60,423 nt of DNA from an uncultured Spirochaetia bacterium (GCA_964398505.1 CAYNMZ010000002.1:1-60423); one strand, 5' to 3'; numbered from the stretch's first letter, positions 2,334-47,515 are shown. Notes: a model not told the origin generated them from the sequence alone. A program made the numbers and translations.

Positions 2334-3034
2334 AAACGCTCATAGTGATACCCACATACAATGAGAGGGAAAATCTAGTTAAGCTTCTGCCCGCGATAAG
2401 GCAAAACTGCCCCGGCTGCCATATCCTTATAGTTGATGATTCGTCCCCCGACGGCACGGGCACCGAGGTAAAAAGGATGTCCAAAAGGGCGGGATGGCTT
2501 AAGCTTATACAGAGAAAGGCAAAGCTTGGGCTTGGCACAGCGTATGTGGAAGGCTTTAAGTACGCGATAAAAAACAAATATGACCTTGTGTTTGAAATGG
2601 ACGCGGACCTTTCCCACGACCCGGGGTTCCTCCCGGATTTTTTAAGCGAAATAAGGTACAATGACCTTGTAATCGGCTCAAGGTATTTGAAGGGAGTGTC
2701 TGTCGTAAACTGGCCGATTTCAAGGCTGATACTGTCAAAGTTCGCGAGTTTTTACGCGAGGACAATAACCGGCATGCCGCTGACGGACTGTACGAGCGGT
2801 TTCAAGTGCTACAGGAGAAAAGTGCTGGAGGCAATAGACCTTGATTCCGTTCACTCCGACGGCTACGCTTTTCAGATAGAAATGCATTATAAAGCATGGA
2901 AAAAAGGTTTTAAGATAAAGGAAATTCCAATAATATTTGTGGACAGGCACTCTGGCACATCAAAGCTCTCTGAAAACATAGTATGGGAAGCGGTATTCCT
3001 GGTGTGGAAATTAAGATTAGGAATAAAAAAATAG
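2330..3034 (+). CDS. Polyprenol monophosphomannose synthase-like GT2 (Dpm1/Ppm1 family)
   Basis: IPTYNERENL, IVDDSSPDGT, MDADLSHDP, DCTSGFKCY and FVDRHSGTSK motifs. Start moved to TTG 2330, which overlaps the upstream TGA (TTGA). Confidence 0.9.
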   Translation: MKTLIVIPTYNERENLVKLLPAIRQNCPGCHILIVDDSSPDGTGTEVKRMSKRAGWLKLIQRKAKLGLGTAYVEGFKYAIKNKYDLVFEMDADLSHDPGFLPDFLSEIRYNDLVIGSRYLKGVSVVNWPISRLILSKFASFYARTITGMPLTDCTSGFKCYRRKVLEAIDLDSVHSDGYAFQIEMHYKAWKKGFKIKEIPIIFVDRHSGTSKLSENIVWEAVFLVWKLRLGIKK

Positions 3035-3037
3035 TTT

Positions 3038-3094
3038 ATATTTTATATTTGATAGCCAGGGTCAGGACACCTTTAACCATCAAATATGAAATAT
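3038..3094. repeat. 16-bp-stem hairpin between the GT2 and epimerase genes
   Basis: ATATTTTATATTTGAT ... ATCAAATATGAAATAT (15 Watson-Crick pairs plus 1 G.U). Confidence 0.8.
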
Positions 3095-3115
3095 CAATTT
3101 AATACGGAGGTTTTT

Positions 3116-4617: not shown

Positions 4618-5307
4618 ATGGCGACTGACAGGGAAACAACACGGAACTACGAGAGATGGTTCCTGACAGGCGAGGGAATGTACACGGATGAGAAACAAAA
4701 GGAGCTGCTCATAAACACGGCGCGTTTCAAGCGCGGCGAGCGTGTGCTGGAAATCGGATGCGGAACCGGCAGGATGATGGAATATTTATGCGACCTTGGG
4801 CTGGATGCGGCCGGTGTTGAGCCTGTTGAGGAACTTGTAAAAAAAGCAAGGCAGAAATCAGGCATACGAAAGGATCAGATAATCAGGGCGCCTTATTCGG
4901 CCCTGCCACTTGGTGACGGGAGTTTTGACAACGTTATATTTATGAACACTTTTGCCTTCGCTGATGACAGGGAAAAAACCCTTAAGGAAGCCTGGCGTGT
5001 GGCCTCAAGGCAGGTTTGTATTGGCTTTCTGAACAGGTATTCACTTACAAGGCTTTTTAAGGTAAAAGCGAGGAAGGAAGTTTACAGCGACGCATACCCG
5101 CTGTCAGGTTCGGAACTGACAGGGATAGTAAGCAGGGCGCTTAAAGGCGAAAATTACAGGTTAAATACTGCGTATACTCTGTTTTTACCCATACAGATCG
5201 CTCATTTTGTGCCTTTTGTGGATGACCTGCTTGAAAAAACAAGGCTTCCTTTCGGCGATTTCGGCGTGATGGTGATAGGTAAATTGAAAACTGAAAGTTT
5301 AAAATGA
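4618..5307 (+). CDS. Class I SAM-dependent methyltransferase
   Basis: VLEIGCGTG motif I and LPLGDGSFDNV motif. Start at ATG 4618, directly after the thpR stop. Confidence 0.85.
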   Translation: MATDRETTRNYERWFLTGEGMYTDEKQKELLINTARFKRGERVLEIGCGTGRMMEYLCDLGLDAAGVEPVEELVKKARQKSGIRKDQIIRAPYSALPLGDGSFDNVIFMNTFAFADDREKTLKEAWRVASRQVCIGFLNRYSLTRLFKVKARKEVYSDAYPLSGSELTGIVSRALKGENYRLNTAYTLFLPIQIAHFVPFVDDLLEKTRLPFGDFGVMVIGKLKTESLK

Positions 5308-5370
5308 TAGCCGGTATTTTTATGTTTTTATCCTGAAAAAACGTAACTTTAAGTTTTCAGTCTTAAATTT
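5281..5370. repeat. AT-rich heptamer inverted pair spanning the methyltransferase stop
   Basis: AAATTGA AAACTGA AAGTTTA AAAT versus 5346-5370: 20/25 complementary plus 2 G.U. Confidence 0.65.
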
Positions 5371-6405: not shown

Positions 6406-8592
6406 TTGGACTTAAAGCAGCTTTTAAATAAGGAACAATACGAGGCAGTGTGCCACAAGGACGGCCCGCTACTGATACTCGCTGGCGCGGGATCTGGCAA
6501 GACACGTGTCATAACCTACAGGATAGCTAACCTTATATCAGCCTATGGAGTAGAACCCGGACATATTCTCGCTGTCACTTTTACAAATAAGGCCGCTGGA
6601 GAGATGAAGGAGCGCATACGCTCGGTCATAGGAAAAAAAGCCGAGGAGATATGGATGAGCACGTTCCACTCGCTCGGCTGCAGGCTTTTACGCCAGCACG
6701 CCGACGTGTTGGGCTATACAAAGGCCTTTTCCATTTACGATGAGGATGACAGGGAAAGGCTCGTGAAGGAATGCATGCATCAGGCAAAGGTTTCGGATAA
6801 GGATATGAAGCCGAACCAGATTATCCGGTACATCTCGGACATAAAAAACCAGCTTCTCTCGCCCGCGCAGTTTGAGGAAATAGCCTCTGACTATAACAAC
6901 AAGATAGTCTCAAGGGTCTACGGCATATACGAGGAAAAAATGAAGCGTAACAACGCAATGGACTTTGACGACCTTATAAAAAAGCCCATAGAACTCTTCG
7001 ACGCCCGCAGGGACATCCTTGACGCATACAGGGAAAAGTTCAGGTACATACTCATTGACGAGTACCAGGATATAAACAACTCCCAGTACACGCTCGTTTC
7101 AATGCTGGCTGAAAAATACAGGAACATATGCGTGGTAGGCGACGATGACCAGAGCATATACAGATTTCGAGGGGCTGACATAACCAACATACTTGAATTT
7201 GAGGACGATTACAAGGACGCCAAAGTCATCAGGTTGGAGCAGAATTACCGCTCCACAAAAAACATACTCAGGGCGGCTCACAGCGTCATAAGGAACAACA
7301 AGGGAAGGAAGGACAAGGAACTCTGGACAGAGAACAATGAGGGCGGCAAAATAGTGTTTTATTACACCGACGACGAGATAGCGGAGTCAGAGGCTGTCTT
7401 GCACGAGGTGGACAGGCTTATGCGCGTGTCTGACGTGAGCCTAAGGCAGATGGCGGTGTTTTACAGGACAAACGCCCAGTCGCGCGTGATAGAGGACCGC
7501 TTCAGGCGCGCGGGCCTGCCCTACAAGCTTGTAGGCGGCATATCTTTCTACGGCAGGATGGAGATAAAGGACCTGCTAGCCTATCTGCGCATAGTCTCAA
7601 ATCCTCATGACATAATAAGCTTCAAGAGGATAATTAATGTCCCGCCCAGGGGTATAGGCGATGCTTCAATTGACAGGGTTGAGGAGAACGCCATGGAAAA
7701 GGGCATTTCCTTCATTGACGGCCTGCTTGACGCCGCTTCTGTGGCTGATATAAAGGACAGCGTGAAGAATACGCTTGTAAGGTTCGGCACTTTCATAAAA
7801 CATCTTCACGACAACAAGTCAAACATGAAGCTCCAGGACATAATGAAGGAGATAATATCAAGGACAGGATACCTTGAATACTGGATGAAGGACACGTCAG
7901 TAAAGGCCAGGGATAGGGTGGAAAATATAAAGGAACTTGTGTCGGCTTTGTCCGAATATGAGGAAGGAAATGCCGGCGCGTCGCTTGAGGATTTTCTAAA
8001 CCAGGTGGCGCTTATATCCGATGTTGACAAGATGGATGATAAAGCCGAAGCTGTGACACTGATGACAATACACAGCGCGAAGGGATTGGAGTTTGATGTT
8101 GTATTTTTGACAGGGATGGACGAGGGGCTTTTTCCGCATAAGAACAGCATTGACGAGCCCGGGGGCATAGAGGAGGAAAGGCGGCTTGCCTATGTGGGTA
8201 TTACCAGGGCAAGGAAAAAGCTCTACCTCTTTTCAGCTGTTTCAAGGAGGCAGTACGGCACGAAAAAGCTGGGCCAGATCTCGCGCTACATAAACGAGAT
8301 TCCGCCGGAACTGCTGGAGCATAAGGGAAGGATGCCCGTAAAGACAGTGGAGGAGAAATACCTGAAAGGCAGTATTGAGGACACGATATCGGACATGGAG
8401 CCTGAGTTTGACATGCCCGTTGACGTGGCGCCCACATACAAGCCGGGCCAGAAAGTGAAGCATAAAAAAATGGGCGCAGGGGTTATAGTGAAAATAGAGC
8501 CTCACGGGGATGACTTCAAGCTTACGGTGAACTTCAAGGCGCACGGGAAAAAAGTGCTGTCAGCCAACCACGCGGGTCTGGAGAAGATATAA
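6406..8592 (+). CDS. pcrA: ATP-dependent DNA helicase PcrA/UvrD
   Basis: AGAGSGKT, TFTNKAA, DEYQD, VGDDDQSIYRFRGA, LEQNYRST, TIHSAKGLEF, EERRLAYVGITRA and a C-terminal Tudor-like domain. TTG start with GGAGA SD. Confidence 0.95.
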   Translation: MDLKQLLNKEQYEAVCHKDGPLLILAGAGSGKTRVITYRIANLISAYGVEPGHILAVTFTNKAAGEMKERIRSVIGKKAEEIWMSTFHSLGCRLLRQHADVLGYTKAFSIYDEDDRERLVKECMHQAKVSDKDMKPNQIIRYISDIKNQLLSPAQFEEIASDYNNKIVSRVYGIYEEKMKRNNAMDFDDLIKKPIELFDARRDILDAYREKFRYILIDEYQDINNSQYTLVSMLAEKYRNICVVGDDDQSIYRFRGADITNILEFEDDYKDAKVIRLEQNYRSTKNILRAAHSVIRNNKGRKDKELWTENNEGGKIVFYYTDDEIAESEAVLHEVDRLMRVSDVSLRQMAVFYRTNAQSRVIEDRFRRAGLPYKLVGGISFYGRMEIKDLLAYLRIVSNPHDIISFKRIINVPPRGIGDASIDRVEENAMEKGISFIDGLLDAASVADIKDSVKNTLVRFGTFIKHLHDNKSNMKLQDIMKEIISRTGYLEYWMKDTSVKARDRVENIKELVSALSEYEEGNAGASLEDFLNQVALISDVDKMDDKAEAVTLMTIHSAKGLEFDVVFLTGMDEGLFPHKNSIDEPGGIEEERRLAYVGITRARKKLYLFSAVSRRQYGTKKLGQISRYINEIPPELLEHKGRMPVKTVEEKYLKGSIEDTISDMEPEFDMPVDVAPTYKPGQKVKHKKMGAGVIVKIEPHGDDFKLTVNFKAHGKKVLSANHAGLEKI

Positions 8593-8669
8593 AAAATTCT
8601 GATACCCATAAGCCATAATAAAAATTATTCGCACACTGATTTTATGGTTTTCTGGCTTTCCGGATACTT

Positions 8670-8704
8670 TGAATTTTTACCTTGAATTGAATTTTTACCT
8701 GAAT
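8670..8704 (+). repeat. Tandem direct repeat TGAATTTTTACCT(T)GAAT x2 abutting a -35 box
   Basis: TGAATTTTTACCT at 8670-8682 and 8688-8700 (18-bp period). Confidence 0.8.
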
Positions 8705-8731
8705 TGACACCCCCACCTTAATATGTTAAAT
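8704..8731 (+). promoter_or_regulatory. sigma70-type promoter of the paralog pair/dGTPase operon
   Basis: TTGACA (8704-8709), 16 bp, TGn-TAAATT extended -10. Confidence 0.55.
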
Positions 8732-10840: not shown

Positions 10841-12043
10841 ATGGAAGAAAAAGACTATCTGTTGACCAGAGAAATGCTTGAAGAGCTTGAGGACAAGACA
10901 CTGGCGCCGTACGCCATGAAGAGCAGGCTGACACGCGGCAGGCGTTACAGGGAAAAAGAAGACAGCTTCAGGTCAGTATACCAGCGGGACCGCGACAGGA
11001 TAATACATTCCACGGCCTACAGGCGGCTTGAATACAAGACTCAGGTTTTTGTGAACCTTGAGGGTGACTATTACAGGACGAGGCTGACGCATACCGCGGA
11101 GGTTGCGCAGATTGCGCGTTCAGTGGCAAGGGCCCTGAGGCTGAACGAGGAACTGACCGAATCCATAGCGCTTGCCCATGACATAGGGCATACGCCTTTC
11201 GGGCATTCGGGTGAGACTGTCCTAAACAGGCTTATGAAGGACGAGGGTGGTTTTGAGCACAATATGCAGAGCCTTAGGGTACTTGACGAGCTTGAGGAAA
11301 AATACCCGGACTTCCCGGGATTGAACCTCTGCTGGGAGACCAGGGAAGGAATAATCAAGCATACAACTGACTACGACTCGCCGGTTTTCGCGGACTATGA
11401 GCCGGAGCTCTCGCCGACGCTTGAGTCCCAGGTAGTTAATATAGCGGACGAGATAGCCTACAATTCCCACGATGTGGACGACGGAATAACCTCAAGGATA
11501 CTGTCGCTGGAAGGCTTAAAGACTACAAAAATATGGAAGGAAATAGAAAAAACCGCTGATACTGAAAAGTTCGCGGGCCTTCCGCTGGATATGCAAAAAT
11601 ACAATTTGACCAGGGCGCTTATAAGCGTCCAGATAACTAACCTGATAAACAATTCTGTCAGGAACTTAAGGGAAAACAAGATAGATTCCATTGAAAAGGT
11701 GAGAAATCACAGGGGCTTGCTGATAGAGTTCAGCCCGGAAATGAAGGAGCTTCATAGGGACTTAAAGTCGCACCTGTACAATAATTTTTACAAGCATTAC
11801 AAGGTCATAAGGATGGAATACAAGGCAGAAAAGATAATACAGGACCTTTTTGACATTTACTTAAAGAGGGGCAGCACGGTTGACGAGCGCGGGGTTGAGA
11901 CCTCCATTCTGCCGCCTGAGACCAAAAAGAGGCTGAAAAAAGATTCCTTGAAGCGGGTTATATGCGATTACATAGCTTCAATGACAGACAGGTCCATTAT
12001 AGAGGAATATAAGAAGCTTTTTGACCCTTATGAGAAAGTATAG
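10841..12043 (+). CDS. dgt: Deoxyguanosinetriphosphate triphosphohydrolase (HD-domain dGTPase)
   Basis: YQRDRDRIIHSTAYRRLEYKTQVF, RTRLTH, LAHDIGHTPFGH, HDVDDG and DYIASMTDR motifs. Confidence 0.93.
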   Translation: MEEKDYLLTREMLEELEDKTLAPYAMKSRLTRGRRYREKEDSFRSVYQRDRDRIIHSTAYRRLEYKTQVFVNLEGDYYRTRLTHTAEVAQIARSVARALRLNEELTESIALAHDIGHTPFGHSGETVLNRLMKDEGGFEHNMQSLRVLDELEEKYPDFPGLNLCWETREGIIKHTTDYDSPVFADYEPELSPTLESQVVNIADEIAYNSHDVDDGITSRILSLEGLKTTKIWKEIEKTADTEKFAGLPLDMQKYNLTRALISVQITNLINNSVRNLRENKIDSIEKVRNHRGLLIEFSPEMKELHRDLKSHLYNNFYKHYKVIRMEYKAEKIIQDLFDIYLKRGSTVDERGVETSILPPETKKRLKKDSLKRVICDYIASMTDRSIIEEYKKLFDPYEKV

Positions 12044-12045
12044 AA

Positions 12046-12077
12046 AATCCGGGATCCAAAATCCAAAATCCGGAGCC
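12046..12077 (+). repeat. Heptamer tandem array (AATCCGG/GATCCAA/AATCCAA/AATCCGG)
   Basis: 7-bp periodicity directly after the dGTPase stop. Confidence 0.75.
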
Positions 12078-34670: not shown

Positions 34671-34673
34671 AAA

Positions 34674-37183: not shown

Positions 37184-37238
37184 GCGGCCGGGCTTAAAAG
37201 AAAAAACAGGTTTTTGACATTAAGCAAGGAGACAGGAA

Positions 37239-38309
37239 ATGGCTTTTAAAAGGCTAAAGACAAGGCAGGTAAGAATAGGAAGGGCAGTTATAGGCGCGGG
37301 AAACCCGGTCCTTGTGCAGTCAATGACAAACACAAGGACCTCTGACGTCAGGGGAACTGTAAGCCAGATAAAAAGGCTGGCTGACGCGGGCTGTGAGATA
37401 GTGCGCTGCGGCGTGCCTGACATGGAGTCCGCAAAAGCCCTGAAAGCCATAAAAAAGAAGGTTAAAATTCCGCTTGTGGCGGACATTCATTACGATTACA
37501 GGCTCGCTCTTGAGGCTATAAAAAGCGGGGCTGACAAGATAAGGATCAATCCAGGAAACATAGGCTCAGCGGACAAGGTGTCGCAGGTCATACTGGCGGC
37601 AAAGGAACGCGGGGTGGCAATAAGGGTCGGGGTGAACGCGGGAAGCCTGAAGAAAATTGAAAATCTGAAACTTAAGACCGAAAGCGGGAACAGGACAGCG
37701 GACGCCATGGTCGCCTCGCTTCTTGAGTATATTGAGTTCTTTGAGATGCATGATTTCACGGATATTGTAGTTTCTTTGAAAGCATCAGATGTCGTGACCA
37801 CAATAGAAGCATATAAGCTGTTCTCGCAAATGAGGGATTATCCTCTACATATAGGGGTGACTGAAGCCGGTACAGAGCTTGGAGGCACGATAAAGACGGC
37901 CGCAGGACTGGGAATACTCCTGTATGAGGGGCTTGGAGACACTTTGCGAGTTTCGCTCACTGCCGAGCCTGAAAAGGAAGTCTATGTGGCGTACAGGCTG
38001 CTTGACGCTCTCGGCATGAGGAAAAGGGGCGCCGAGATAGTATCATGCCCTACGTGCGCCAGGACCGAGATTGACGTGATAAAGCTGGCGCATGACGTTG
38101 AAAAGGCGGCTATGGGAATAAAAAAACCCGTAAAAATAGCAGTGATGGGTTGTTCTGTGAACGGACCGGGTGAGGCCGCTCACGCCGACATAGGCGTTTC
38201 AGGCGGCAGGGGCGTGGGCCTGATATTTAGGAAGGGAAAGATATTGAAAAAAGTGCCGAAGAAAGACCTGATGAAAGAATTTAATAAAGAGCTTAAAAAA
38301 CTTATATAG
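37239..38309 (+). CDS. ispG: (E)-4-hydroxy-3-methylbut-2-enyl-diphosphate synthase
   Basis: VQSMTNT, ADIHYD, RINPGN, SCPTCAR, MGCSVNGPGEA. Confidence 0.97.
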   Translation: MAFKRLKTRQVRIGRAVIGAGNPVLVQSMTNTRTSDVRGTVSQIKRLADAGCEIVRCGVPDMESAKALKAIKKKVKIPLVADIHYDYRLALEAIKSGADKIRINPGNIGSADKVSQVILAAKERGVAIRVGVNAGSLKKIENLKLKTESGNRTADAMVASLLEYIEFFEMHDFTDIVVSLKASDVVTTIEAYKLFSQMRDYPLHIGVTEAGTELGGTIKTAAGLGILLYEGLGDTLRVSLTAEPEKEVYVAYRLLDALGMRKRGAEIVSCPTCARTEIDVIKLAHDVEKAAMGIKKPVKIAVMGCSVNGPGEAAHADIGVSGGRGVGLIFRKGKILKKVPKKDLMKEFNKELKKLI

Positions 38310-38369
38310 TTTATATTTGATACTTTATGGTTAAGACGCAAAGGTTTTCACCGTCAAATATAAGCTATA
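38305..38369. repeat. 16-bp-stem hairpin homologous to the 3038-3094 hairpin
   Basis: TATAGTTTATATTTGA ... TCAAATATAAGCTATA (15 Watson-Crick pairs plus 1 G.U). Confidence 0.8.
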
Positions 38370-38390
38370 AATTTACAAGGAGTTAACGAA

Positions 38391-40112
38391 ATGAGATGGT
38401 CCAATGCCCTGATAAACACATTGCGAGAGACGCCGAAGGAAGCTGAGGCGGTAAGCCACAAGCTGATGATGAGGGCCGGGCTTATAGCCAAGCTGGGCTC
38501 AGGAATATACGATTTCCTGCCGCTGGGATGGAAAGCCGTAAAAAAGGTAATGAACATAATCAGGGAGGAAATGGACGCCGCGGGCGCGCAGGAAGTCCTG
38601 CTGCCGATTTTATCCCCGGCGGAGCTGTGGAAAGAGACAGGGCGCTGGTCGCTTTACGGAAAGGAAATGATGCGGTTAAAGGACAGGAACGACGCGGAGT
38701 ACGGGCTGGGGCCGACGCACGAGGAAGTCATAACCGACCTTGTAAGGAGGCAGGTGACCTCATACAAGCAGCTGCCCGTCAACCTTTACCAGATACAGAT
38801 AAAGTTCCGTGACGAGATAAGGCCGCGCTTCGGCATAATGCGCGCGAGGGAATTCATGATGAAAGACGCTTACTCCTTTGACAGGAACGAGGAGGAGGCG
38901 CAGAAAAGCTACAGGAAAATGTTTGAGACGTACAATAAAATATGCAGGCGTATCGGCTTTAAGTTCAGGCCAGTAGAGGCGGATTCCGGCGCCATAGGCG
39001 GCTCGTCGTCGGCCGAATTCATGGTGCTGGCCGAGACCGGCGAGGAGACGATAGCTTATTGTGAAAAATGCGATTACGCGGCCAATGTAGAGAAAGCCTC
39101 GGGAAAAATAGCGGCCATAGGCGGGAACGCCGGGGAGAAGCTTGAAAAGATCCACACGCCGGACATAAGGACTGTGGAGGAACTGGCAGCTTTTGTAAAA
39201 ATGAAGCCCGAAGACACGGCAAAGACGATATTTTACATGGCTGACGGCGTGATGACAGCGGCCATGATGAGGGGGGACAGGGAAATAAACGAGATTAAGC
39301 TGAAGAATGTGGCAGGCGCGGCCGACCTGAGGCTCGCGACGCCCGAGGAGATAAAGGCAAAGACAGGCGCGCCCGTGGGTTTTGCCGGGCCGATTAACCT
39401 TAAGGAAAAAGGAATAAAACTTATAATAGACAATACTGTCGCGGCAATGGGATCAATGGTATGCGGCGGGAATGAAAAGGATTACCACTATGTGGGCGTA
39501 AAAAGGGGCAGGGATTTTAACGAGGACATGACGGCTGACATCATAAAACTGAAAAAAGGCGACATTTGCGCGAAATGCGGGGGCGCGATAAACGAGCAAA
39601 AAGGCATAGAAATGGGCCATGTGTTTTATCTCGGCACAAAGTACTCAAAAGCCATGAAAGCAACTTTCCTTGACGAAAACCAGAAGGCCGTGGAATTTGT
39701 AATGGGCTGTTACGGCATAGGCGTGACAAGGATAGTGGCCGCTGCCATAGAACAGGGCAATGACGAGAACGGCATAATCTGGCCCATGGCGATCGCGCCT
39801 TACGAGGTTTACGTGGCGCCGGTGAATAACAAATACAAGGAAGGACTGGATTTCGCGTTTGAGCTGTATGAGAGGCTGAAGGCCGCGGGTATTGATGTTA
39901 TATTTGATGACCGCGACATATCGCCGGGAGTAAAGTTCAAGGACGCGGATTTAATAGGCTTTCCCGTACGGGTAGTGGTTGGAGAGAAGCATTTTAAGGA
40001 CAATAAGGTGGAGTTCAAGCTGAGAAAGGAAAAGAACCTTGAGCTTGTCGGAAGGGATGAGGTTTTTGACAGGGTTGTTGCGGCAGTAAGGGCGGAAAAA
40101 AGCATTTCGTAA
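38391..40112 (+). CDS. proS: Proline-tRNA ligase (bacterial type with insertion editing domain)
   Basis: SHKLMMRAG, GPTHEE, KFRDEIRPRFG.MRAREF.MKDAYSF, MGCYGIGVTR, KFKDADLIGFP. Confidence 0.98.
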   Translation: MRWSNALINTLRETPKEAEAVSHKLMMRAGLIAKLGSGIYDFLPLGWKAVKKVMNIIREEMDAAGAQEVLLPILSPAELWKETGRWSLYGKEMMRLKDRNDAEYGLGPTHEEVITDLVRRQVTSYKQLPVNLYQIQIKFRDEIRPRFGIMRAREFMMKDAYSFDRNEEEAQKSYRKMFETYNKICRRIGFKFRPVEADSGAIGGSSSAEFMVLAETGEETIAYCEKCDYAANVEKASGKIAAIGGNAGEKLEKIHTPDIRTVEELAAFVKMKPEDTAKTIFYMADGVMTAAMMRGDREINEIKLKNVAGAADLRLATPEEIKAKTGAPVGFAGPINLKEKGIKLIIDNTVAAMGSMVCGGNEKDYHYVGVKRGRDFNEDMTADIIKLKKGDICAKCGGAINEQKGIEMGHVFYLGTKYSKAMKATFLDENQKAVEFVMGCYGIGVTRIVAAAIEQGNDENGIIWPMAIAPYEVYVAPVNNKYKEGLDFAFELYERLKAAGIDVIFDDRDISPGVKFKDADLIGFPVRVVVGEKHFKDNKVEFKLRKEKNLELVGRDEVFDRVVAAVRAEKSIS

Positions 40113-40167
40113 TCCGCGGAAAAGGCCTTTAAAATAAGGTGTTTATATGAAAAACCCTAAAAACACC

Positions 40168-40195
40168 TTGACACAGCCGGAAAAACTGGTATAAT
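40168..40195 (+). promoter_or_regulatory. Cold-shock gene promoter
   Basis: TTGACA, 16 bp, TG-n-TATAAT. Confidence 0.82.
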
Positions 40196-40274
40196 CATTA
40201 GCGTTCCCAAAAATAGGGGGCATTTGTAGATTTAAGGTCTACAAGTAACAAAATTTTCAGGAGGCAACAGAAAC

Positions 40275-40478
40275 ATGGCAACAGGAAAAGTGAAGTGGTT
40301 CAATGAAAAGAAAGGCTACGGATTCATTGAACAGGAAGGCGGCAAGGACGTGTTCGTGCATTATGAAGCGATTCAGATGGACGGGTTCAAGACCTTAAAA
40401 GAGGGCGAGACCGTGACCTTTGACATCGTTGAAGGCGCGAAAGGCCCCCAGGCAGCCAACGTAAAAAGCGCCGGCTAA
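40275..40478 (+). CDS. Cold-shock protein (CspA family)
   Basis: [15 protein letters not shown] (RNP1), DVFVHY (RNP2), KGPQAANV. Confidence 0.96.
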
Positions 40479-40501
40479 TCACAGCGGACGCTTTACGATA
40501 G

Positions 40502-40534
40502 AAGCCCGGCAGGATTTCCTGCCGGGCTTTTTTT
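40502..40534 (+). terminator. Rho-independent terminator after csp
   Basis: AAGCCCGGCAGG-ATTT-CCTGCCGGGCTT followed by a T-run. Confidence 0.92.
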
Positions 40535-40644
40535 ATTTAGATGCACTTATGCCCGGGATAAAAATAGCTGCTACGTGTTTCTTGCCTGAAAAACGAGTTT
40601 TTATATTAAAGATTTAACCCGCTGTCCTAAAATTCCCTAAAAAA

Positions 40645-40673
40645 TTGACAAAACAGCCTTATAATGATAAAAT
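40645..40673 (+). promoter_or_regulatory. Promoter at the head of the chemosensory locus
   Basis: TTGACA, 17 bp, TG-n-TAAAAT. Confidence 0.78.
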
Positions 40674-40709
40674 AAATTATATTATTTTAATGCTCATGAG
40701 GAGACAAAA

Positions 40710-41111
40710 ATGGGGATAAAGCAGTTGATTATTATTTTTTTGGTTATTGTTTTCGGTGCTTCATATCTTATCGGCGGGTCTGAGTCAATCAGCGAAAAAA
40801 TAGAAAAATATTTGGACTCTAATTTTAAGTATGACCCTGAAAACTACGAAAAGTACTCTTATTTAAACATTGTTTATATGAACCTTACCGCAAAATATGA
40901 CAGAGCCCTGCAGCTTATTGAAAAGTACGAGGCGCGGTTTGAAAAGGACGAGCAGAAGGCAAAGGCCCAGTTTCAGAGGGCGAGCGCCTATGACCGCAAG
41001 CTGGATGGTAAGAGGGCGAGGGCTGAGTACCAGAAATATGTTGACCTTTACCCTGAAGGACCCAATGCAAAAAAGGCACGGGAAAGAATAAACTTCCTAA
41101 AATTTTATTGA
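40710..41111 (+). CDS. Small membrane-anchored TPR-like protein (BamD/CpoB-like end)
   Basis: N-terminal hydrophobic anchor; AQFQRASAY...ARAEYQKYVDLYPEG..AKKA. Confidence 0.65.
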   Translation: MGIKQLIIIFLVIVFGASYLIGGSESISEKIEKYLDSNFKYDPENYEKYSYLNIVYMNLTAKYDRALQLIEKYEARFEKDEQKAKAQFQRASAYDRKLDGKRARAEYQKYVDLYPEGPNAKKARERINFLKFY

Positions 41112-41121
41112 AAATGGTGAA

Positions 41122-42162
41122 TTGATGGACAAAATAATTCTTGCGCTTATGACCGCCGTTTTATTTTTATCCTCATGCGTGTCAACGGGCGGTGAAGCCG
41201 GCAATTACGCTCAAAAGACTCAACAGGAAGAAGCGGACGATGATTTTGTAAAACAGGCGCCTATAGACGAAAATTACGTTGACACTGACGGCATAATAAT
41301 ACTTTCCCCGGGAGAATCAGAGGCGTCCGAGCTTGAGAAGTATATACTTGGCAGGAGAAAACAGGTGACAGAAGCCGGGGATGAAACAGAGAAAGGCACG
41401 GGCGAGGAGATAACCTTTGAATATGAGCCCGATTCCTCGGGAGTTTTGCTTGTAGAGTCCGAGTCAAATGCCACGGTTGACAGGGCGGGATTTGTCCTTG
41501 TGGAAAAAGCCGGGTTTATCAGCCAGAATTTCACTGAGGACGGTTTCGTTTATTCGCTTGACGAGCACAAGGAGCTTATTGCCGCGGGCGACATGGTTTA
41601 CATAAAGCTTACTGTAGGCAAGGGCGCGCCCAAAGGCAGGCAGTTTTCCATATATGAGGATTCCGAGGAAGTGGTGAACAAGCTTACGGGAGAGCCTATG
41701 GGAAAGCTGATAAAGTTCGTCGGCGTGCTGAAAATCATAGGCAATGTGGAGGACAATATTTACAGGGCCAAGATAACAAAGAGTTATGAGCCGATAAGGA
41801 ACAACTACAAGATAAAAACAAGGCAGGACATGCAGAAATACCACAAGGAAATATCCATGAAGGTGAAAAAAAAGAACCTTGCGGTCCGGGCAAACATAGT
41901 TAAGGTAAAGGACGACACAAAGAGCCTGAAAAGCACTGACCTGATATACCTGGACGCGGGTATTTCCTCCGGCCTGCTGCCCGGGGAAAAACTGGGTATA
42001 TACAGGCCGCGGCAGATAAAGGAAACAGGCAAGGAAGAGGAATATAACAGGATAGGCACCTGCCTCATAATGAACTCCATGCAAAATTCCGCGGTAGCAC
42101 TTATAGTCAAGCAGGACGATATAATAAGGGCCGGCGATATTGTAAAAACGCCTTTAAAGTAG
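41122..42162 (+). CDS. Lipoprotein with two FlgT-C/TsaP-like beta domains
   Basis: Lipobox LFLSSC; GDMVYI..G....FSIY....V....TGEPMG and DLIYLDAG.SSGL.PGEKLGIY repeats. Confidence 0.6.
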   Translation: MMDKIILALMTAVLFLSSCVSTGGEAGNYAQKTQQEEADDDFVKQAPIDENYVDTDGIIILSPGESEASELEKYILGRRKQVTEAGDETEKGTGEEITFEYEPDSSGVLLVESESNATVDRAGFVLVEKAGFISQNFTEDGFVYSLDEHKELIAAGDMVYIKLTVGKGAPKGRQFSIYEDSEEVVNKLTGEPMGKLIKFVGVLKIIGNVEDNIYRAKITKSYEPIRNNYKIKTRQDMQKYHKEISMKVKKKNLAVRANIVKVKDDTKSLKSTDLIYLDAGISSGLLPGEKLGIYRPRQIKETGKEEEYNRIGTCLIMNSMQNSAVALIVKQDDIIRAGDIVKTPLK

Positions 42163-42214
42163 GAAAAGATGCAAAAGCATTACCGGGCTTCTTACGGCTT
42201 GAGCGGCATCGCCA

Positions 42215-43027
42215 ATGATTGAAAAAGAAGGGTTTGAAAAGCTTAAAAATTTGGTATTTGCCGTCCGCGGCCTTGATGTGGGCCAGTACAAGGAAAATTA
42301 CCTAAAGAGAAGGTTTGCTGTCAGGATGAGGGCGCTTCAAATAAGTGATTACGGGGCTTACGCTTCTTTCCTTGAAAAAAATCCTCAGGAATTTGACATA
42401 TTGATGGATAAACTCACCATAAACGTCACGCAGTTTTTCAGGGATACCGAGGTTTTCAGCGAATTTGAGAATACCGTGCTTTTGGAACTTTTTGAAAACA
42501 AAAAAAACAGGCTGTGTATATGGAGTGCCGGATGTTCCTCTGGCGAGGAGCCGTATTCAATAGCGATTTCCGTGATGGAAACTGCTGAAAAATCGGGCAT
42601 AGGCAGCCTTGACCTTGAAATACAAGCTACAGATATTGACAATGCCGTGCTTTTCAAGGCGGTTTCCGGCAAGTACGAGGGACGAACGCTGGACAATGTG
42701 CCTGAAACCAGGAAAAAAAAGTATTTCAACTTTGACGGCAAAAATTATATAATAAATGAAGAAGTAAGGCAAAAAGTAAAGTTTATCAGGGCCAACCTGA
42801 TGGAACCCTATAAAACGGCATATTTTGACGTGGTTTTCTGCAGGAATGTGATTATTTATTTTTCCAGGGAGCTGCAGAAAAAGGTCATAGGTTTTTTTTA
42901 TGACGCTTTAAAGGAAGGCGGATATTTTTTCATGGGTAAGACAGAGACAATGCTTATGGAAATGCGCGAAAAGTTTGAATGCGTGAATATAAAGGAGAGA
43001 ATTTTCAGGAAGACCTCGCGGAAATGA
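42215..43027 (+). CDS. cheR: Chemotaxis protein-glutamate methyltransferase
   Basis: TINVTQFFRD, IWSAGCSSGEEPYS, ATDID, DVVFCRNVIIYF, MGKTE. Confidence 0.95.
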   Translation: MIEKEGFEKLKNLVFAVRGLDVGQYKENYLKRRFAVRMRALQISDYGAYASFLEKNPQEFDILMDKLTINVTQFFRDTEVFSEFENTVLLELFENKKNRLCIWSAGCSSGEEPYSIAISVMETAEKSGIGSLDLEIQATDIDNAVLFKAVSGKYEGRTLDNVPETRKKKYFNFDGKNYIINEEVRQKVKFIRANLMEPYKTAYFDVVFCRNVIIYFSRELQKKVIGFFYDALKEGGYFFMGKTETMLMEMREKFECVNIKERIFRKTSRK

Positions 43028-43078
43028 CATATTAATTTAAATCAGGCAGTATAAAAGAAGTGCAAAAGGCGGAACAAA

Positions 43079-44257
43079 ATGGAAACAGTACAGGATCATA
43101 TAAATCTCGGAATGGCGTTCACTGTAAGCAAGAATTACGCCATGGCCATAAAAGAGTTTGAGAAGGCGCTGTCCATAAACCCCGAGGACGCCGAGGTCCA
43201 TGCCCACCTTGCCAACGCCTACATATACAAGGGCGATTACGAGAAAGCTGTTGCAAGTTATGAGAAATCCCTAAAAATAAACCCGATGAATGTTTCTGTG
43301 ATAACAAAGCTTGGCAGGCTGTACGCTAACATGGGCAAGGCTGATAAGGCGCTTGAGGAATATAAGAAAGCCATAGAGATAAACCCTAATGACATCGCTG
43401 TCAGGCACTCGCTTGCGGACGTTTACGTGAAGCTTGAAAAATATGATGACGCGAGCAGGGAATACGGGTTGATACTAAAAAAGGAGCCTGAAAATACCGA
43501 GATTAGGTTCAAAATGGGTTATATTTTTGAGGCGCAGAAAAAATTTGTCGAGGCGGCCGCGGAATACGAGCAGGTTTTAAAGTCAAACCCTAAAAGCCCC
43601 GGAATAAACTCAATGTTGGGCAATGTATACAGGCACATGAAGAATTATGACAAGGCAATAGAGGCATATACAAGGGCGATAAAAGTCAACCCGAATGAAG
43701 CGGGAGTGGCTTTCAACTTGGGTGTGCTTTATTACGAGCGCGGCGAGCTGGAAAAGGCGCTTGAACAGCTGGAAAAAGCAAAGCAGAACAAGTTTAAAAA
43801 TCCTGAAGTTTATACGCTTACGGCTGAAATATACAATAAGCTCGGCAAAAAGACCGAAGCCATGCAAGAATACAAGAAAATAGCGGGTTCGGGTACCGCG
43901 GATCCCGAGACTCACAAGGCCATGGGTTTTGTTTTCAGCGAGGAAGGACAGCTGGACGATGCTATCAGGGAATATAATGCCGCGTTAAAGCAGAAAAAGG
44001 ACGATCCTGCCGTGTACGAGGCGCTGGGCCATTTATATTACAAGAAGCTAATGTACGGCGAGGCCAAGGAAAATTTCCTTAAAAGCGCGGAACTGGGAAG
44101 GGAAAGCGCCGATATGTATTACAAACTTGGTAACATTTCAATGAAGGAAAATGACCCTGCAAAGGCGGCCGATTACTGGAAAAAATCCCTGCGAATTAAT
44201 CCGTCAAATGAGATAATAAAAAAGAACCTCAAATTGCTTACCGGCGAAAGCCTGTAG
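43079..44257 (+). CDS. Cytoplasmic TPR-repeat protein (~10 TPRs)
   Basis: Repeated LG..Y...G.Y.KA...Y.KA..INP; no signal peptide. Confidence 0.88.
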   Translation: METVQDHINLGMAFTVSKNYAMAIKEFEKALSINPEDAEVHAHLANAYIYKGDYEKAVASYEKSLKINPMNVSVITKLGRLYANMGKADKALEEYKKAIEINPNDIAVRHSLADVYVKLEKYDDASREYGLILKKEPENTEIRFKMGYIFEAQKKFVEAAAEYEQVLKSNPKSPGINSMLGNVYRHMKNYDKAIEAYTRAIKVNPNEAGVAFNLGVLYYERGELEKALEQLEKAKQNKFKNPEVYTLTAEIYNKLGKKTEAMQEYKKIAGSGTADPETHKAMGFVFSEEGQLDDAIREYNAALKQKKDDPAVYEALGHLYYKKLMYGEAKENFLKSAELGRESADMYYKLGNISMKENDPAKAADYWKKSLRINPSNEIIKKNLKLLTGESL

Positions 44258-44265
44258 GGCCGTCT

Positions 44266-44868
44266 ATGGATGTCATAAAAAAACAGCAGAAAAGCCTCGG
44301 CGAGATACTTGTTCATTCCGGGCTGATAACGAGGGAACAGCTTGATGAGGCCTTGGCGGATCAGAAGCAAAGCTCGGAGCCGCTCGGCAAGGTGCTGGTC
44401 AGGAAGGGTTATGTAAGCGAGCATGACATAATGGACGCCTTAAAGGGCATGCTTGTCGTAGTAGTCCGGGCGGGCGGCGAGGATTTTGGCGTTGAGATAA
44501 TATTTGCTCGCGAGATACTCAATTACAGGAAAATAACGCCCCTGCCTGAAATGCCGCCTTATATACTGGGAATGATAAGCCTAAGGGATGAGATAATCCC
44601 TGTGATTTCTCTGGCAGGTATGGTTTTTGGCGGGCCCTGTGCGGCCGGTGAAGACTCAAAGATTATCGTTATTGAGCGAAAAAATGAATGCGTCGGCCTG
44701 CTTGTGGACTCGGTGATAGCCGTCAGGAACTTCTCAAAGGAAAATTTTGAGGACATGAAGAGAAGCATAATATCAAGGGAAAAGAAATACATTGAGGGCA
44801 TTATAAAGAACAAGGGAGAAATAATAACACTACTTAAGCCGGAATACTTCTTTTCCCGGAGGGATTAA
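44266..44868 (+). CDS. MshEN-like domain fused to CheW
   Basis: SLGEILVHSGLITREQLDEALADQ-5aa-PLGKVLVRKGYV, followed by CheW motifs (TPLPEMPPYILGMISLR, VGLLVDSV). Confidence 0.85.
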   Translation: MDVIKKQQKSLGEILVHSGLITREQLDEALADQKQSSEPLGKVLVRKGYVSEHDIMDALKGMLVVVVRAGGEDFGVEIIFAREILNYRKITPLPEMPPYILGMISLRDEIIPVISLAGMVFGGPCAAGEDSKIIVIERKNECVGLLVDSVIAVRNFSKENFEDMKRSIISREKKYIEGIIKNKGEIITLLKPEYFFSRRD

Positions 44869-47051
44869 TGGAAAATCAGCGGGAAAATCCGGGCATCGGC
44901 GAAAATGACGCCATTGGCCACAACAATGTCGGGGTATATTATTACTCAAAGGGCATGTTCCAGCAGGCAATAGAGGAATTCAAAAAATCCCTGTCAATAA
45001 ATCCGGGCTATATACAGGCTCAGCAGAATTTAAAGGCAGTCAATAAGCAGACCGGGATATACGACCGCGCCATACAGGCATATAAGAAGGTCCTGCAGCT
45101 GCGCGCGGATGACCCTGAAGCATATTACAATCTGGGCAAGGCTTTAAGCTATACCGGTGAATATGCAGCGGCCGCTTCCCATCTTGAGACGGCGCTGAAG
45201 ATAAACCCGGAGCATTTACCTGCCGTCAATTTGCTCGGATTGATATACATTAATAACGGCGAATATGACAAAGCTGTGGGAATACTTGGGCCCGCGACGC
45301 AAAAATACCCGAATTACGCGGAATTAAGAAATACGCTCGGCGAGACTTTCTATAAGATGGGACATTATGCCGAGGCTGAAGAACAGTTAAAGCTCGCGAT
45401 AAAGGCTGACCCTGAGAATTCAACCGCTTATTACACATTAAGCTTTGTATATGGCGAGATGAACAGGGAAGATGACGCCTCAGCGGCTTACGCTAAGGCG
45501 GTAGAGATAAATCCTTCATTTGTGCAGTATAACAAGAGTCTTTTAATAGATGTCTCGGATACCTGCGCGCCAAAAAGGGAGAATGAGGCTGAGAAAGCGC
45601 CTGAGGAAAGGAAAGAGGAAGCTTTTTTCAATCTCGCGAAGGTTTACAGGCTGAAGGGTTATATTGATGATGCCATAACGCAGATAAAAAGGACAATCAC
45701 CTATAACATAAAAAAACCCGACTATTACAATTTTTTCGGCGAACTGCTGATTAAAAAAGGGCTTGTTAAGGACGCGATAGAAATTTTCAGACAGACGCTT
45801 AAAATTGACCCTGATTTTGTTGAGGCTAAGGTCAATATTGGCCGAGCTTACAGGGAAATGAAGGAATTTGACAAAGCCAGGGGCGTTATGGACGCCATAG
45901 AGGAGGAAAACCCGGGGTATTCAAACATCAACCTGGAGAGGGGCATAATATCCTACAAGGAAGAGAAGTTGGATGAGGCAATGGTGTTTTTCAAAAAACA
46001 GATTGAGGTCGAGCCTTACAATGACGACGCTCACTACTATCTTGGTGTGTCCTATTACAGGAAAAAGGAATATGACGCCGCGATTACAGAGCTTCGCCGC
46101 GCGCTGGAACTGGTGCCTGATTACATAAAAAAGCCGGATGTAAACCTTTACCTGGGTCTTGTCCTGACGGACAAAGGCAGGAACGAGGAAGCCATAATAG
46201 AGTACCAAAAGGCGCTGTCGGTACAGCCCGACAACGCTGTGGCGCACAATTCAATGGGAGTCGCTTTCAAAAACCTCGGCAATATAGAAAAGGCAATAGA
46301 GGAATACAAGCGGGCTGTAGCTATAGATAAAAATTATTACAAGGCTTACAATAATCTGGGAGTAGCTTATTACAAGAAGAACTTTTTCAGTGAAGCTGAA
46401 AAATATTTCCAAAAGGCGCTTGAGATTGAGCCTAATTACGAGGTGGCTAAAAAGAACCTGGAAGCCGCCAGGAAAAAGGACTCTGTTTTCAGGGAAACAG
46501 CCGAAAAGATAAAGGAAAAACTGAAAACAGCCCCATCTGACGCGGCCCTAAGGTACGAGCTGGCCAATACGTCCAGAAATACTGGACAATTGAAGGACGC
46601 TATTGTAGAATATAAGAAGGCCATAGAAATTAAGCCTGATTTTATTGATGCGGCAATAAACCTGGGCGCCGCTTACCTTGAGTCAGGGGAATACGATGCG
46701 GCTATAAAGGCCTTTATTTCCGTTATTTCCAGGCAGCCGCTTAATGAAAAAGCTCATTTTATGCTCGCTGAAGCGTACCTGAAAAAGGACTGGTACGACG
46801 AGGCTGACATTGAGTTCCATAAGTCGCTTGAATTAAACCCTGAAAACGACGAGGTTTTTTTCAAGCTGGGCGAAGTTTACAGGAAAAAGGCCTGGTGGGA
46901 CGAGGCGACGGCCATGTGGAAAAAATACATTGACAGCAACCCGGAATCAGAGACCGCAAGACAGGCCCAGGAAAATATCAGGATGGTGGAGCTTTGGAAA
47001 AAGGAGCTTGTGATTTCGCCCTCCGCCGGGAAGAAGAAGATTATAAAATGA
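44868..47051 (+). CDS. Large cytoplasmic TPR-repeat protein (727 aa)
   Basis: Well over a dozen TPRs throughout; no signal peptide; TAATG overlap with the upstream gene. Confidence 0.88.
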   Translation: MENQRENPGIGENDAIGHNNVGVYYYSKGMFQQAIEEFKKSLSINPGYIQAQQNLKAVNKQTGIYDRAIQAYKKVLQLRADDPEAYYNLGKALSYTGEYAAAASHLETALKINPEHLPAVNLLGLIYINNGEYDKAVGILGPATQKYPNYAELRNTLGETFYKMGHYAEAEEQLKLAIKADPENSTAYYTLSFVYGEMNREDDASAAYAKAVEINPSFVQYNKSLLIDVSDTCAPKRENEAEKAPEERKEEAFFNLAKVYRLKGYIDDAITQIKRTITYNIKKPDYYNFFGELLIKKGLVKDAIEIFRQTLKIDPDFVEAKVNIGRAYREMKEFDKARGVMDAIEEENPGYSNINLERGIISYKEEKLDEAMVFFKKQIEVEPYNDDAHYYLGVSYYRKKEYDAAITELRRALELVPDYIKKPDVNLYLGLVLTDKGRNEEAIIEYQKALSVQPDNAVAHNSMGVAFKNLGNIEKAIEEYKRAVAIDKNYYKAYNNLGVAYYKKNFFSEAEKYFQKALEIEPNYEVAKKNLEAARKKDSVFRETAEKIKEKLKTAPSDAALRYELANTSRNTGQLKDAIVEYKKAIEIKPDFIDAAINLGAAYLESGEYDAAIKAFISVISRQPLNEKAHFMLAEAYLKKDWYDEADIEFHKSLELNPENDEVFFKLGEVYRKKAWWDEATAMWKKYIDSNPESETARQAQENIRMVELWKKELVISPSAGKKKIIK

Positions 47052-47386
47052 AAAATATCACGATAATAATTCCGCCGGCAAGGTTTGATAACGTGAAAAA
47101 AAGGCTCGTGGAAATCGGAGTTTGCGGCATGACCGTATCTGATGTCAGGGGCTTTGGATACGAGAAAAAACGCATGAAACTCCACGATGACAGGGAAATG
47201 ACAGTTGAGCTCTCGGAAAAGGTAAGGATTGACATAGCGCTTAAGGAAGAAGACGTGGAACAGGTTATTTCTGCCGTGACAGAGGAGGCCAGGACAGGCA
47301 GGCTCGGTGACGGAAAAATATTCATAAGCGAATTGACAGACGCGGTGAGGGTAAGGACGGGCGAGCGCGGGGAACACGCTTTGTAA
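47048..47386 (+). CDS. P-II family signal transduction protein, divergent T-loop
   Basis: 112 aa; GMTVSDVRGFG, K58, TGRLGDGKIF, RVRTGERG. ATGA overlap with the TPR stop. Confidence 0.93.
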   Translation: MKNITIIIPPARFDNVKKRLVEIGVCGMTVSDVRGFGYEKKRMKLHDDREMTVELSEKVRIDIALKEEDVEQVISAVTEEARTGRLGDGKIFISELTDAVRVRTGERGEHAL

Positions 47387-47387
47387 A

Positions 47388-47515
47388 GTCCGGAATCCGG
47401 AATCAAGGATAAAAGATAATTTTTATAATAAGGTTTTTGATACAAGAAGTAAAAAAACTCGCAATTGTTTTTTAAATGATTATGACTCCGGACTCCGGAC
47501 CACGGATTTCGGATT
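47388..47515. repeat. Heptamer-built inverted pair flanking an AT-rich spacer
   Basis: GTCCGGAATCCGGAATCA (47388-47405) versus TGACTCCGGACTCCGGAC (47483-47500): 16/18 complementary. Confidence 0.8.

Follow-up and report, generated by a model that had tools for sequence, protein, structure and literature searches.

The intergenic regions of a 60.4 kb stretch of DNA from an uncultured bacterium (GCA_964398505.1, CAYNMZ010000002.1:1-60423; hereafter the window, meaning the whole stretch analyzed) carry short repeats built of 7-nt units, which sit directly behind stop codons between genes of the same strand and are often arranged as inverted pairs. We read these elements, with a probability of roughly 0.6, as heptanucleotide simple-sequence arrays together with small palindromes built of such units, the latter resembling repetitive extragenic palindromes (REPs) or miniature transposable elements with inverted repeats (MITEs). 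The class is already known from the short tandemly repeated repetitive (STRR) sequences, the GGGAATC arrays of Xanthomonas, and the TAACTGA repeats; what is new is its occurrence in this uncultured lineage.

Period-7 repeats and their turnover at gene junctions

The gene map of the window, compiled from a list of open reading frames (ORFs) and Pfam scans, leaves ~3 kb (~5%) of intergenic DNA. An earlier sequence-only reading had claimed 7-bp-periodic repeats at the gene junctions, a claim exposed to comparison of the lag-7 autocorrelation with shuffled controls, and we ran this comparison on the 25 intergenic segments that reach 30 nt or more (2454 nt in total) against 300 dinucleotide-preserving shuffles. 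Spacer identity at lag 7 was 0.301, compared to 0.269 in the shuffles (z = 3.40), a value matched by none of the 300, with harmonics at lags 14 and 21 (z of 1.8 and 1.9, respectively) and troughs at lags 4–5, 10–11, and 17; lags 6 and 8 gave z values of about 0.6, so the excess is specific to period 7. A local test, in which perfect lag-7 stretches of 16 nt or longer were counted in the whole window and in dinucleotide shuffles of it, returned seven stretches (all intergenic) vs. 0.36 in the shuffles, and every other lag between 4 and 18 yielded zero to two. The periodic repeats at gene junctions are, hence, real, and the window holds head-to-tail 7-nt copies beyond chance, as is characteristic of long simple-sequence repeats (LSSRs). 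Tandem Repeats Finder (TRF) independently called period-7 arrays at 3031, 12054, 30046, 33086, 37652, 47389, and 47484. Given that the identical DNA is present in independent JGI, NCBI, ENA, and Logan assemblies, an assembly artefact is excluded.

The elements occupy nine of the 25 spacers, all nine lying between same-strand genes, and none was found in a divergent or convergent spacer of this set. Six of the nine start within 22 nt before to 3 nt after a stop codon, and two arrays of CCATAAG units start 9 and 14 nt past it, which bears out the placement directly after stop codons noted previously. For those that form hairpins, the start falls in the interval from 22 nt upstream to 1 nt downstream of the stop, and 10–20 nt separate their end from the next Shine-Dalgarno sequence; two elements themselves contain the TAG stop codon (at 3032 and 38307). 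The observation that the heptamers differ and share the 7-bp period likewise holds, with at least five unrelated heptamers in the window.

Comparison of PyrH with the protein database placed relatives at 79–81% identity in Candidatus Goldbacteria/Goldiibacteriota and relatives at 82–90% in metagenomes, and a PyrH search of genome contigs returned only matches of ≤65% identity from many phyla. On this sequence evidence, the host is Goldbacteria-like and not a cyanobacterium; the window DNA itself is present in anaerobic digester and activated-sludge samples. We compared seven syntenic relative loci, which share ~70–77% nucleotide identity with the window across three shared genes. Period-7 arrays numbered eight in L206, three each in L208, L211, and L212, two in L210, and four in L336 (vs. 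~0–0.3 in shuffled sequence), with none in L335. Counted by genome, five of six relatives have this excess, and among periods longer than 5 nt, it is clear over shuffles for period 7 alone, periods 6 and 8–12 being near zero.

Comparing orthologous junctions in relatives, as the sequence-only reading had proposed, shows that the same junctions hold arrays made mostly of different heptamers. Between frr and uppS, the window carries (GGAATCC)2(GGATTCC)2, L206 carries (TAGATTT)3...(AAATCYA)4, L208 carries (GCGAAAT)3, L211 an ACGTGCC-type pair, and L212 two copies of AGTCCGGATTCCGG, i.e., (AGTCCGG ATTCCGG)2. The TCCGG pair of the window between tsf and pyrH is replaced by CAGTTYA arrays in L206 and L211 and by an (AGTTCGG)...(GAACTCC) pair in L336. 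Between the glycoside-hydrolase-like gene and rpsB (GH/rpsB), the CACTTCG array of the window corresponds to GGGTWTN...CCCGATT in L206, AGAGATT in L208, and GAGTGWA...CACKCTC in L211, the last being an inverted pair of the form (GAGTGWA)n...(CACGCTC)2(CACTTCC)2. Changes by whole units, the copy-number behavior of LSSRs between strains and species, were also seen: L208 and its close counterpart L209 are 99.76% identical over 8.2 kb with a single AGAGATT unit as their sole indel, and the CAGTTYA units between tsf and pyrH number ~2.7 in L206 vs. ~4.7 in L211.

The same GH/rpsB spacer provides an internal control, since its 3′ 110 nt, containing the rpsB leader, are conserved in all relatives and the arrays, some dozens of bases upstream, differ in every genome. 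This 5′ leader (30130-30219 in the window; L206 8198-8310, L208 8135-8243, L210 8318-8430, and also in L335 and L336) has a consensus of 19 pairs, 11 with compensatory changes, and is a candidate S2 autoregulatory leader not covered by Rfam. A search of Rfam returned nothing at the gathering threshold over the whole window and nothing at E ≤ 1 over 29900-33200, and no tRNA or tmRNA was found in the window.

The junction between pyrH and frr shows an element arriving. In six genomes, this spacer is a coupling signal of 9–16 nt, and in L212, a 75-nt heptamer palindrome occupies it; the palindrome is apparently related to one (family B) present twice in the window, and its first units resemble the end of pyrH. 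Comparison of the filled with the empty sites shows no visible target-site duplication, the flanks being too diverged for certainty. Further family B copies with the loop motif GTTAAGAC occur in L265/L328, L290, and probably L212; those in L265 and L290 are antisense to their flanking genes, again between the stop codon and the Shine-Dalgarno sequence. The metagenome scan behind these copies returned, among the matches listed, mostly AT-rich chance hits, with L265/L328 and L290 informative, and the exact family B core gave five matches in GTDB representative genomes, one of them real.

One array is translated. At 23829-23862 (+ strand), inside pyk, the degenerate units AATCCAA AATTCAA GATCCAA AATCCGG encode IQNSRSKIRETG and belong to a repeat family (D9) in which they are 82% identical to the array at 12046. 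At the same codon position, the L206 pyk gene carries a perfect (AAAAGTC)x5 array and decayed units (1863-1930), encoding KVKSQKSKVKSKTKTKNKIQNE, and its pyruvate kinase is 11 residues longer there, with a KVKSQKS-type 7-residue periodicity. The B-domain loop of pyruvate kinase tolerates translated heptamer arrays. We read all eleven places that had been listed as elements, and the pyk site is a genuine one. The site in ispG (37652-37670, + strand) is probably chance, with a TRF score of 31, 2.5 copies, and an indel in ordinary lysine-rich coding sequence.

Anatomy and folding of the elements

Repeat clustering and direct reading resolve the elements into a TCCGG family (five sites in the 60 kb), family B (two), a CCATAAG family (two), a CACTTCG array, and an AAACTGA-type pair. 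The TCCGG family, located at 12046, 23829, 31700, 33087, and 47387/47484, comprises both direct arrays and inverted pairs, with degenerate units such as AATCCGG, ATTCCGG, AATCCAA, and AATCAAG, and TCCGGA is ~10-fold enriched in spacers, which hold 12 of its 23 occurrences in the window vs. 1.2 expected. Six elements fold well compared to shuffled sequence (z from −1.7 to −6.4), giving computational support to the hairpins suggested previously, with no consistent preference for the sense strand. The inverted pairing claimed at the same time is clear at 3033-3099, 5283-5361, 31700-31764, 33087-33112, 38305-38369, and 47387-47515 and weak or absent at 8593, 12040, and 29955, where folding is not significant.

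Three inverted pairs belong to the TCCGG family. Between tsf (stop TGA, 31696-31698) and pyrH, the hairpin at 31700-31764 has arms in which GAAATCCGG..TCCGGA..TCAA pairs with TTGA..TCCGGA..CCGGATTTC, folding at −34.7 kcal/mol (z = −3.2) on the + strand and −39.8 kcal/mol (z = −5.5) on the − strand; it lies inside a 41-nt tandem repeat of 2.3 copies (31698-31791), which duplicates half of the hairpin. The second, a 26-nt perfect palindrome, GAATCCGGAATCC|GGATTCCGGATTC (33087-33112), immediately follows the frr stop (TAG, 33084-33086) and precedes uppS; TRF reports it at period 7 with 94% identity (fold z of −2.0 on the + strand and −2.5 on the − strand). The third, at 47387-47515, separates a P-II gene (stop TAA, 47384-47386) from cheY (start 47536), with one arm reading AGTCCGG AATCCGG AATC (47387-47404) and the other GACTCCG GACTCCG GACCACGGATTTCGGATT (47484-47515) around a 79-nt AT-rich spacer; it was found by TRF, folds with z of −3.8 (+) and −5.3 (−), and is identical in sequence in two metagenome-assembled genomes. 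The surrounding DNA (42215-57024) is a large chemotaxis cluster comprising cheR, two cheW, two cheY-like genes, two cheC/X, cheD, MCP, cheB, and cheA. Within it lie paralogous stretches (repeat families D2 and D6) as well as TPR proteins whose modules are repeated (D1 and D3).

The remaining TCCGG-family array outside pyk, at 12046-12075 (+ strand; families D8/D9), follows an HD-domain gene (stop TAG, 12041-12043), precedes a radical SAM gene, and reads AATCCGG GATCCAA AATCCAA AATCCGG, with a TRF call of 100% identity at 12054-12071. It is a direct array without an inverted partner and without predicted structure (fold z of +0.3).

Family B is a ~65-nt palindrome with arms of TTTATAT/TTGATAN units and a conserved loop. 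Its copy at 3033-3099 separates a glycosyltransferase gene (stop TAG, 3032-3034) from an epimerase gene that probably starts at 3116, with a 5′ arm of TTTATAT TTTATAT TTGATAG and an inner hairpin within the loop; TRF gives period 7 and 3.4 copies, one TTTATAT unit more than in the second copy, and the RNA folds at −18.0 kcal/mol (z = −4.3) on the + strand and −20.6 kcal/mol (z = −4.7) on the − strand. The second copy, at 38305-38369, supplies the stop codon of ispG (TAG, 38307-38309), precedes proS, and folds at −23.1 kcal/mol (z = −6.4) on the + strand, with a z of −2.4 on the − strand. We did note that the mechanical ORF list sets gene starts at 3086 and 47476, inside elements; the likely true starts, 3116 and 47536, lie 30 and 60 nt further downstream, each after a GGAGG.

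The AAACTGA-type inverted pair at 5283-5361 (AAATTGA AAACTGA AAGTTTA ... TAACTTT AAGTTTT CAGTCTT) is imperfect in its period, and its 5′ arm is made up of the final codons of the methyltransferase gene that stops at 5305-5307 (TGA); fold z values are −1.7 (+) and −2.75 (−). Downstream of a UvrD/PcrA-type helicase gene (stop 8590-8592), the short array CCATAAG CCATAAT AAAA (8606-8660) has a weak inverted partner, TTTTATGG TTTTCTGG, and a non-significant fold (z of −1.4 and −0.4). It shares a 22-nt stretch with one mismatch with 29966-29987, part of the (NCCATAA)x3 array of the same family at 29963-29987 (+ strand), which follows the glycoside-hydrolase-like gene (stop 29952-29954). The CACTTCC/CACTTCG direct array at 30035-30073 (+ strand, also reported by TRF) lies in that same spacer, upstream of the rpsB promoter and leader, and the fold of this region (29955) is not significant in the window. 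Elsewhere, an 18-nt unit, TTGAATTTTTACCTTGAA, repeated 2.2 times in tandem (8669-8707) precedes an ORF without a Pfam match. In the region 40113-40709, a cold-shock protein gene (csp, 40275-40478) is preceded by a promoter matching the consensus perfectly (40168-40195; TTGACA-16-TATAAT, extended by TG) and by ~80 nt of leader, and it is followed by a canonical terminator (40500-40531) with a 14-bp GC-rich stem and a T-run.

Known heptamer systems and other phyla

Heptamer arrays in filamentous cyanobacteria were reportedly described as STRR sequences by Mazel in 1990, and the units of STRR1-3 are CCCCAGT, TTGGTCA, and CAACAGT. None of these three units is present in the window, whose own include AATCCGG, ATCCAAA, CACTTCG, CCATAAG, and TTTATAT, and the host is not a cyanobacterium; the STRR comparison in the sequence-only reading is, thus, apt as an analogy, and membership in the strict sense falls away. 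Heptanucleotides are the commonest LSSR in many bacteria, with polymerase slippage proposed as their origin (Mrázek 2007, as relayed in PMC4692102 and PMC4679880). As far as these accounts of the STRR/LSSR literature extend, the window shares with it 7-nt tandem units as the dominant long-repeat class, an intergenic location, a patchy phylogenetic distribution, and slippage-type unit changes. The closer precedents are the general heptanucleotide LSSR and the GGGAATC arrays of Xanthomonas.

The Xanthomonas GGGAATC arrays are non-coding, lie within 50 bp of stop codons, include 70–75 convergent inverted pairs, and are transcribed with no known function, and related species differ in how long the arrays are and how they read but keep the type, single or pair (Rehm et al. 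2015, PMC4692102). The elements described here share this variation and persistence of type, the bias to non-coding DNA near stops between same-direction genes, and the many convergent inverted pairs, and their unit CGGAATC is one base removed from GGGAATC, the unit of the Xanthomonas arrays; heptamer arrays of GGGGA(C/T)T in Nostoc are covered by the same paper (PMC4692102). Convergent NGGAATC pairs near a stop codon occur in the window at 31700, 33087, and 47387. The window differs in its short arrays (2–4 units), several unrelated heptamers, and Goldbacteria-like digester host. In the unit CGGAATC, the longest run of G is two, with no set of four or more tracts of at least three, so G-quadruplexes cannot form.

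TAACTGA arrays lie next to start codons in marine Beggiatoaceae, cyanobacteria, and Bacteroidetes, with S1, Csp, or CsrA proposed as binders (MacGregor 2015, PMC4679880). Like the present elements, they occur as 2–6 copies in the spacers of unrelated, often essential genes, sometimes within ORFs, with a unit that recurs across phyla, and the AAACTGA of the window and the TAAACTG and CAGTTYA of its relatives resemble them. However, TAACTGA arrays are nearly all direct, in one orientation, and overlap the ribosome-binding site, with one indirect set among 170 (PMC4679880), whereas about half of the arrays in the window and relatives form inverted pairs and abut the stop codon.

The hairpins of the window also resemble REP/REPIN elements, being small palindromes in extragenic DNA behind stop codons, frequently paired as inverted doublets that enclose a spacer and form long hairpins, in both orientations (PMC3116915, PMC12306157), and of the MITE features, the arms are present. 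A REP, however, has a single conserved sequence, reaches tens to hundreds of copies, and goes together with a REP-associated tyrosine transposase (RAYT; Bertels & Rainey 2011, PMC3116915), in contrast to the many sequences, 7-nt units, and unit slippage seen here, with no RAYT linked to the heptamers in the window or the fetched loci. Ordinary REP/RAYT systems are carried by relatives at junctions that hold heptamer hairpins in the window. In L336, a RAYT-like Y1 transposase gene with a HUH motif (18677-19222) is flanked by several classical REP copies, GTAGGGGCGATTCACGAATCGCCC, and in L210, where a 4-kb insert of extra ORFs separates cdsA from dxr, this REP is found at the borders of the insert (12900-13120). 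A GC-rich palindromic dispersed repeat (GTCATCGCGAGCC...AAGATTGCTTCGTCG...CTCGCAATGAC) is also present at relatives' junctions (L206 9836-10000 and 3013-3337, L208 11287-11539, and L211 3746-3921), sometimes beside heptamer arrays.

Long TCCGG arrays extend well beyond this lineage. Scanning GTDB species representatives for two TCCGG units gave, among the matches listed, 120 loci (L086-L205), with long arrays in Acidobacteriota, Isosphaeraceae, Phycisphaeraceae, Opitutaceae, Anaerolinea, Syntrophaceae, and Paraburkholderia; a string search of the literature for the double TCCGG unit returned nothing. Within these listed loci, at least 235 arrays had period 7 vs. 14 with period 8 and eight with period 9, and the units not searched for were mostly one-base neighbors, e.g., AATCTGG and AATCAGG. 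An inverted partner within 200 nt accompanied 94 of 212 of these listed arrays (44%), compared to five (2%) in controls, and 13 of 29 arrays in the Goldbacteria-like set, compared to five in controls. The spacers between arms in any one genome are unrelated and 7–198 nt long. Loci in Isosphaeraceae show nested palindromes with several different GAT-N4 units mirrored on both arms.

The order of the arms is close to fixed within a unit family. Among the matches listed, 25 NGGAATC pairs of the CGGAATC/TGGAATC carriers read 5′-(GATTCCN)n...(NGGAATC)n-3′ and one reads the reverse; this set covers at least six genomes in four phyla, drawn from Acidobacteriota, Planctomycetota, Verrucomicrobiota, and Syntrophaceae. 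A scan for GGGAATC (L342-L461; Xanthomonadales, Gemmatimonadaceae, cyanobacteria, and others) gave the opposite order, with the GGAATC arm first in nine of nine scored pairs (0:9). The window pairs at 31700, 33087, and 47387 (3:0) share this GGAATC-first order with the GGGAATC carriers. Since the arrangement is strand-symmetric, this unexpected polarity is not a search artefact.

Origin and possible effects of the elements

Our preferred reading, heptanucleotide arrays plus small palindromes made of the same units, builds on what the syntenic loci display directly, i.e., gain and loss of single units, turnover of the unit with retention of the element type, insertion into an empty site, and independence of orientation, together with the restriction of the elements, in strings of same-strand genes, to the stretch from stop codon to Shine-Dalgarno sequence and, otherwise, to a single protein loop. 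Whole 7-nt units are gained or lost, followed by mutation and re-amplification of variant units, and ready-made palindromes are inserted at gene junctions, the latter shown by the empty and filled pyrH/frr sites and by copies in both orientations. The general generating mechanism proposed previously survives as one lineage-wide process, given the relatives' period-7 excess, the unit-wise changes, and the filled junction. The mobile process proposed alongside it fits family B, which is dispersed in both orientations in a mobile-like manner, but the window contains no transposase. The further suggestion that the hairpins are footprints of excised small genes is not supported, as the extra ORFs of L210 at ispG/proS and cdsA/dxr are bordered by classical REPs or by nothing, and not by heptamer arms.

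Once present, and with ~45% of arrays having a partner within 200 nt, such elements could allow the polycistronic mRNA or the DNA to form stem-loops of 9–20 bp, and the palindromes may be maintained by template switching or by selection for pairing. The hairpins would then act like REP elements, blocking 3′ exonucleases or offering sites for processing, and, with a start no more than 15 nt from the stop codon, they could get in the way of the terminating ribosome; REPs at this distance stall ribosomes and trigger mRNA cleavage (RepRanger 2025, PMC12306157). By this analogy, a REP-like effect on polycistronic mRNA is probable, and the role in mRNA processing raised in the sequence-only reading is plausible. 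As the sequences are not conserved, we view most elements as tolerated, self-renewing passengers and not as dedicated regulators.

Several points weigh against this reading. Any effect on mRNA is something we infer, and the antisense strand folds as well or better at 3028, 31696, 33080, and 47384, so that folding gives no hint of RNA-level selection. Nor does slippage by itself account for the few heptamers that each genome favors at many sites or for the near-fixed polarity of NGGAATC pairs. The window's own strain shows no copy-number variation across assemblies, and digester contigs covering 29900-33300 show no indels, at low depth and in contigs that drop variants.

The elements could instead be selected post-transcriptional regulators, intercistronic stem-loops that set the relative expression of neighboring genes through RNase III/E, exonuclease blocking, or ribosome stalling, with slippage merely tuning them. 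The hairpins do fit the stop-to-Shine-Dalgarno gap, the tsf/pyrH and frr/uppS junctions keep an array in most relatives, often paired or as a hairpin, despite complete sequence turnover, and REPs offer a precedent (PMC12306157). As the polarity of the pairs reads alike in RNA of either strand, its bias could also reflect selection at the RNA level. However, folding shows no sense-strand preference, about half of the arrays have neither partner nor structure, arrays come and go at any junction, even ones tightly coupled in most relatives, and one lies inside pyk. In the spacer where a functional RNA can be compared side by side, the rpsB leader is conserved and the arrays are not. We consider dedicated regulation unlikely, at about one chance in five's worth of credence.

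The cross-phylum data raise the idea that heptamer palindromes are a distinct class, made by a dedicated polar process, through copying primed by a fold-back or hairpin or through an enzyme, of the host or encoded by the element, that lays the same unit outward on both arms. Such a process would fit the near-fixed polarity (25:1 among the matches listed, 0:9 in the GGGAATC scan, and 3:0 in the window), the mirroring of different heptamers, and the unrelated spacers within a genome; we hold it to be doubtful. A dedicated writer or spreader, in the form of a trans-acting transposase (REPIN/RAYT- or MITE-like) or of templated or fold-back-primed addition on both arms, appears slightly more doubtful still. 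For it speak the dispersal of family B in both orientations with a conserved loop, the filled and empty pyrH/frr sites, the recurrence of one heptamer family at five window sites and of GTCAAAA at three sites within 20 kb of L206, the mirrored heptamers of Isosphaeraceae, and the RAYT-like gene with classical REPs in L336, and the arm polarity (25:1 among matches listed, and 0:9) keeps templated addition open. Yet Pfam scans found no transposase, reverse transcriptase, or nuclease gene in the 60-kb window, and a phmmer search with the L336 RAYT-like protein against ~10,000 ORF segments of all fetched loci recovered only that protein itself. Target-site duplications are not visible, occurrences of the exact family B core in GTDB representative genomes amount to only a handful, and the unrelated spacers of 7–198 nt indicate that the pairs of a genome are not copies of one element.

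Binding sites for a protein with a ~7-nt footprint, such as a cold-shock or S1 protein on RNA, CsrA on the GGA of the TCCGG family, or a DNA regulator on TCCGGA, are very unlikely to account for the arrays. The proposal of S1, Csp, or CsrA for TAACTGA (PMC4679880), the strongly expressed-looking csp gene of the window, and the spacer enrichment of TCCGGA all point that way, but the five or more unrelated heptamers of the window, and the change of heptamer from relative to relative at a given junction, cannot be explained by a single specific binder, and the adjoining genes are unrelated housekeeping genes. Two proposals for a common property of the units were also rejected, stop codons in all frames as their purpose, since AATCCGG contains no stop in any frame on either strand, and GANTC or Dam-type methylation sites as a common core, since many units have none.

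Ordinary intrinsic terminators, chance low complexity, or an assembly artefact can be set aside with next to no reservation: the hairpins do sit after stop codons, but most lie inside same-strand strings such as rpsB-tsf-pyrH-frr-uppS, their stems are AT-rich or without a following T-run, a terminator scan of 29000-48900 called none of them (a minus-strand call at 33119-33140 abuts the 33087 palindrome), and the local and global lag-7 tests and the identical independent assemblies rule out the other two. From their sequence, the heptamer hairpins are, thus, predicted not to be intrinsic terminators.

In practical terms, the elements break short-read assemblies and can mislead gene callers, as with the starts at 3086 and 47476. 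Neither the reason for seven nor any function of heptamer arrays has been established so far. The syntenic relatives show the evolution of such arrays cleanly, with sequence turnover under a kept type, single-unit indels, and invasion of both a coupled junction and a protein loop, and the family-specific polarity that spans phyla gives a concrete, testable clue to how inverted pairs are made.

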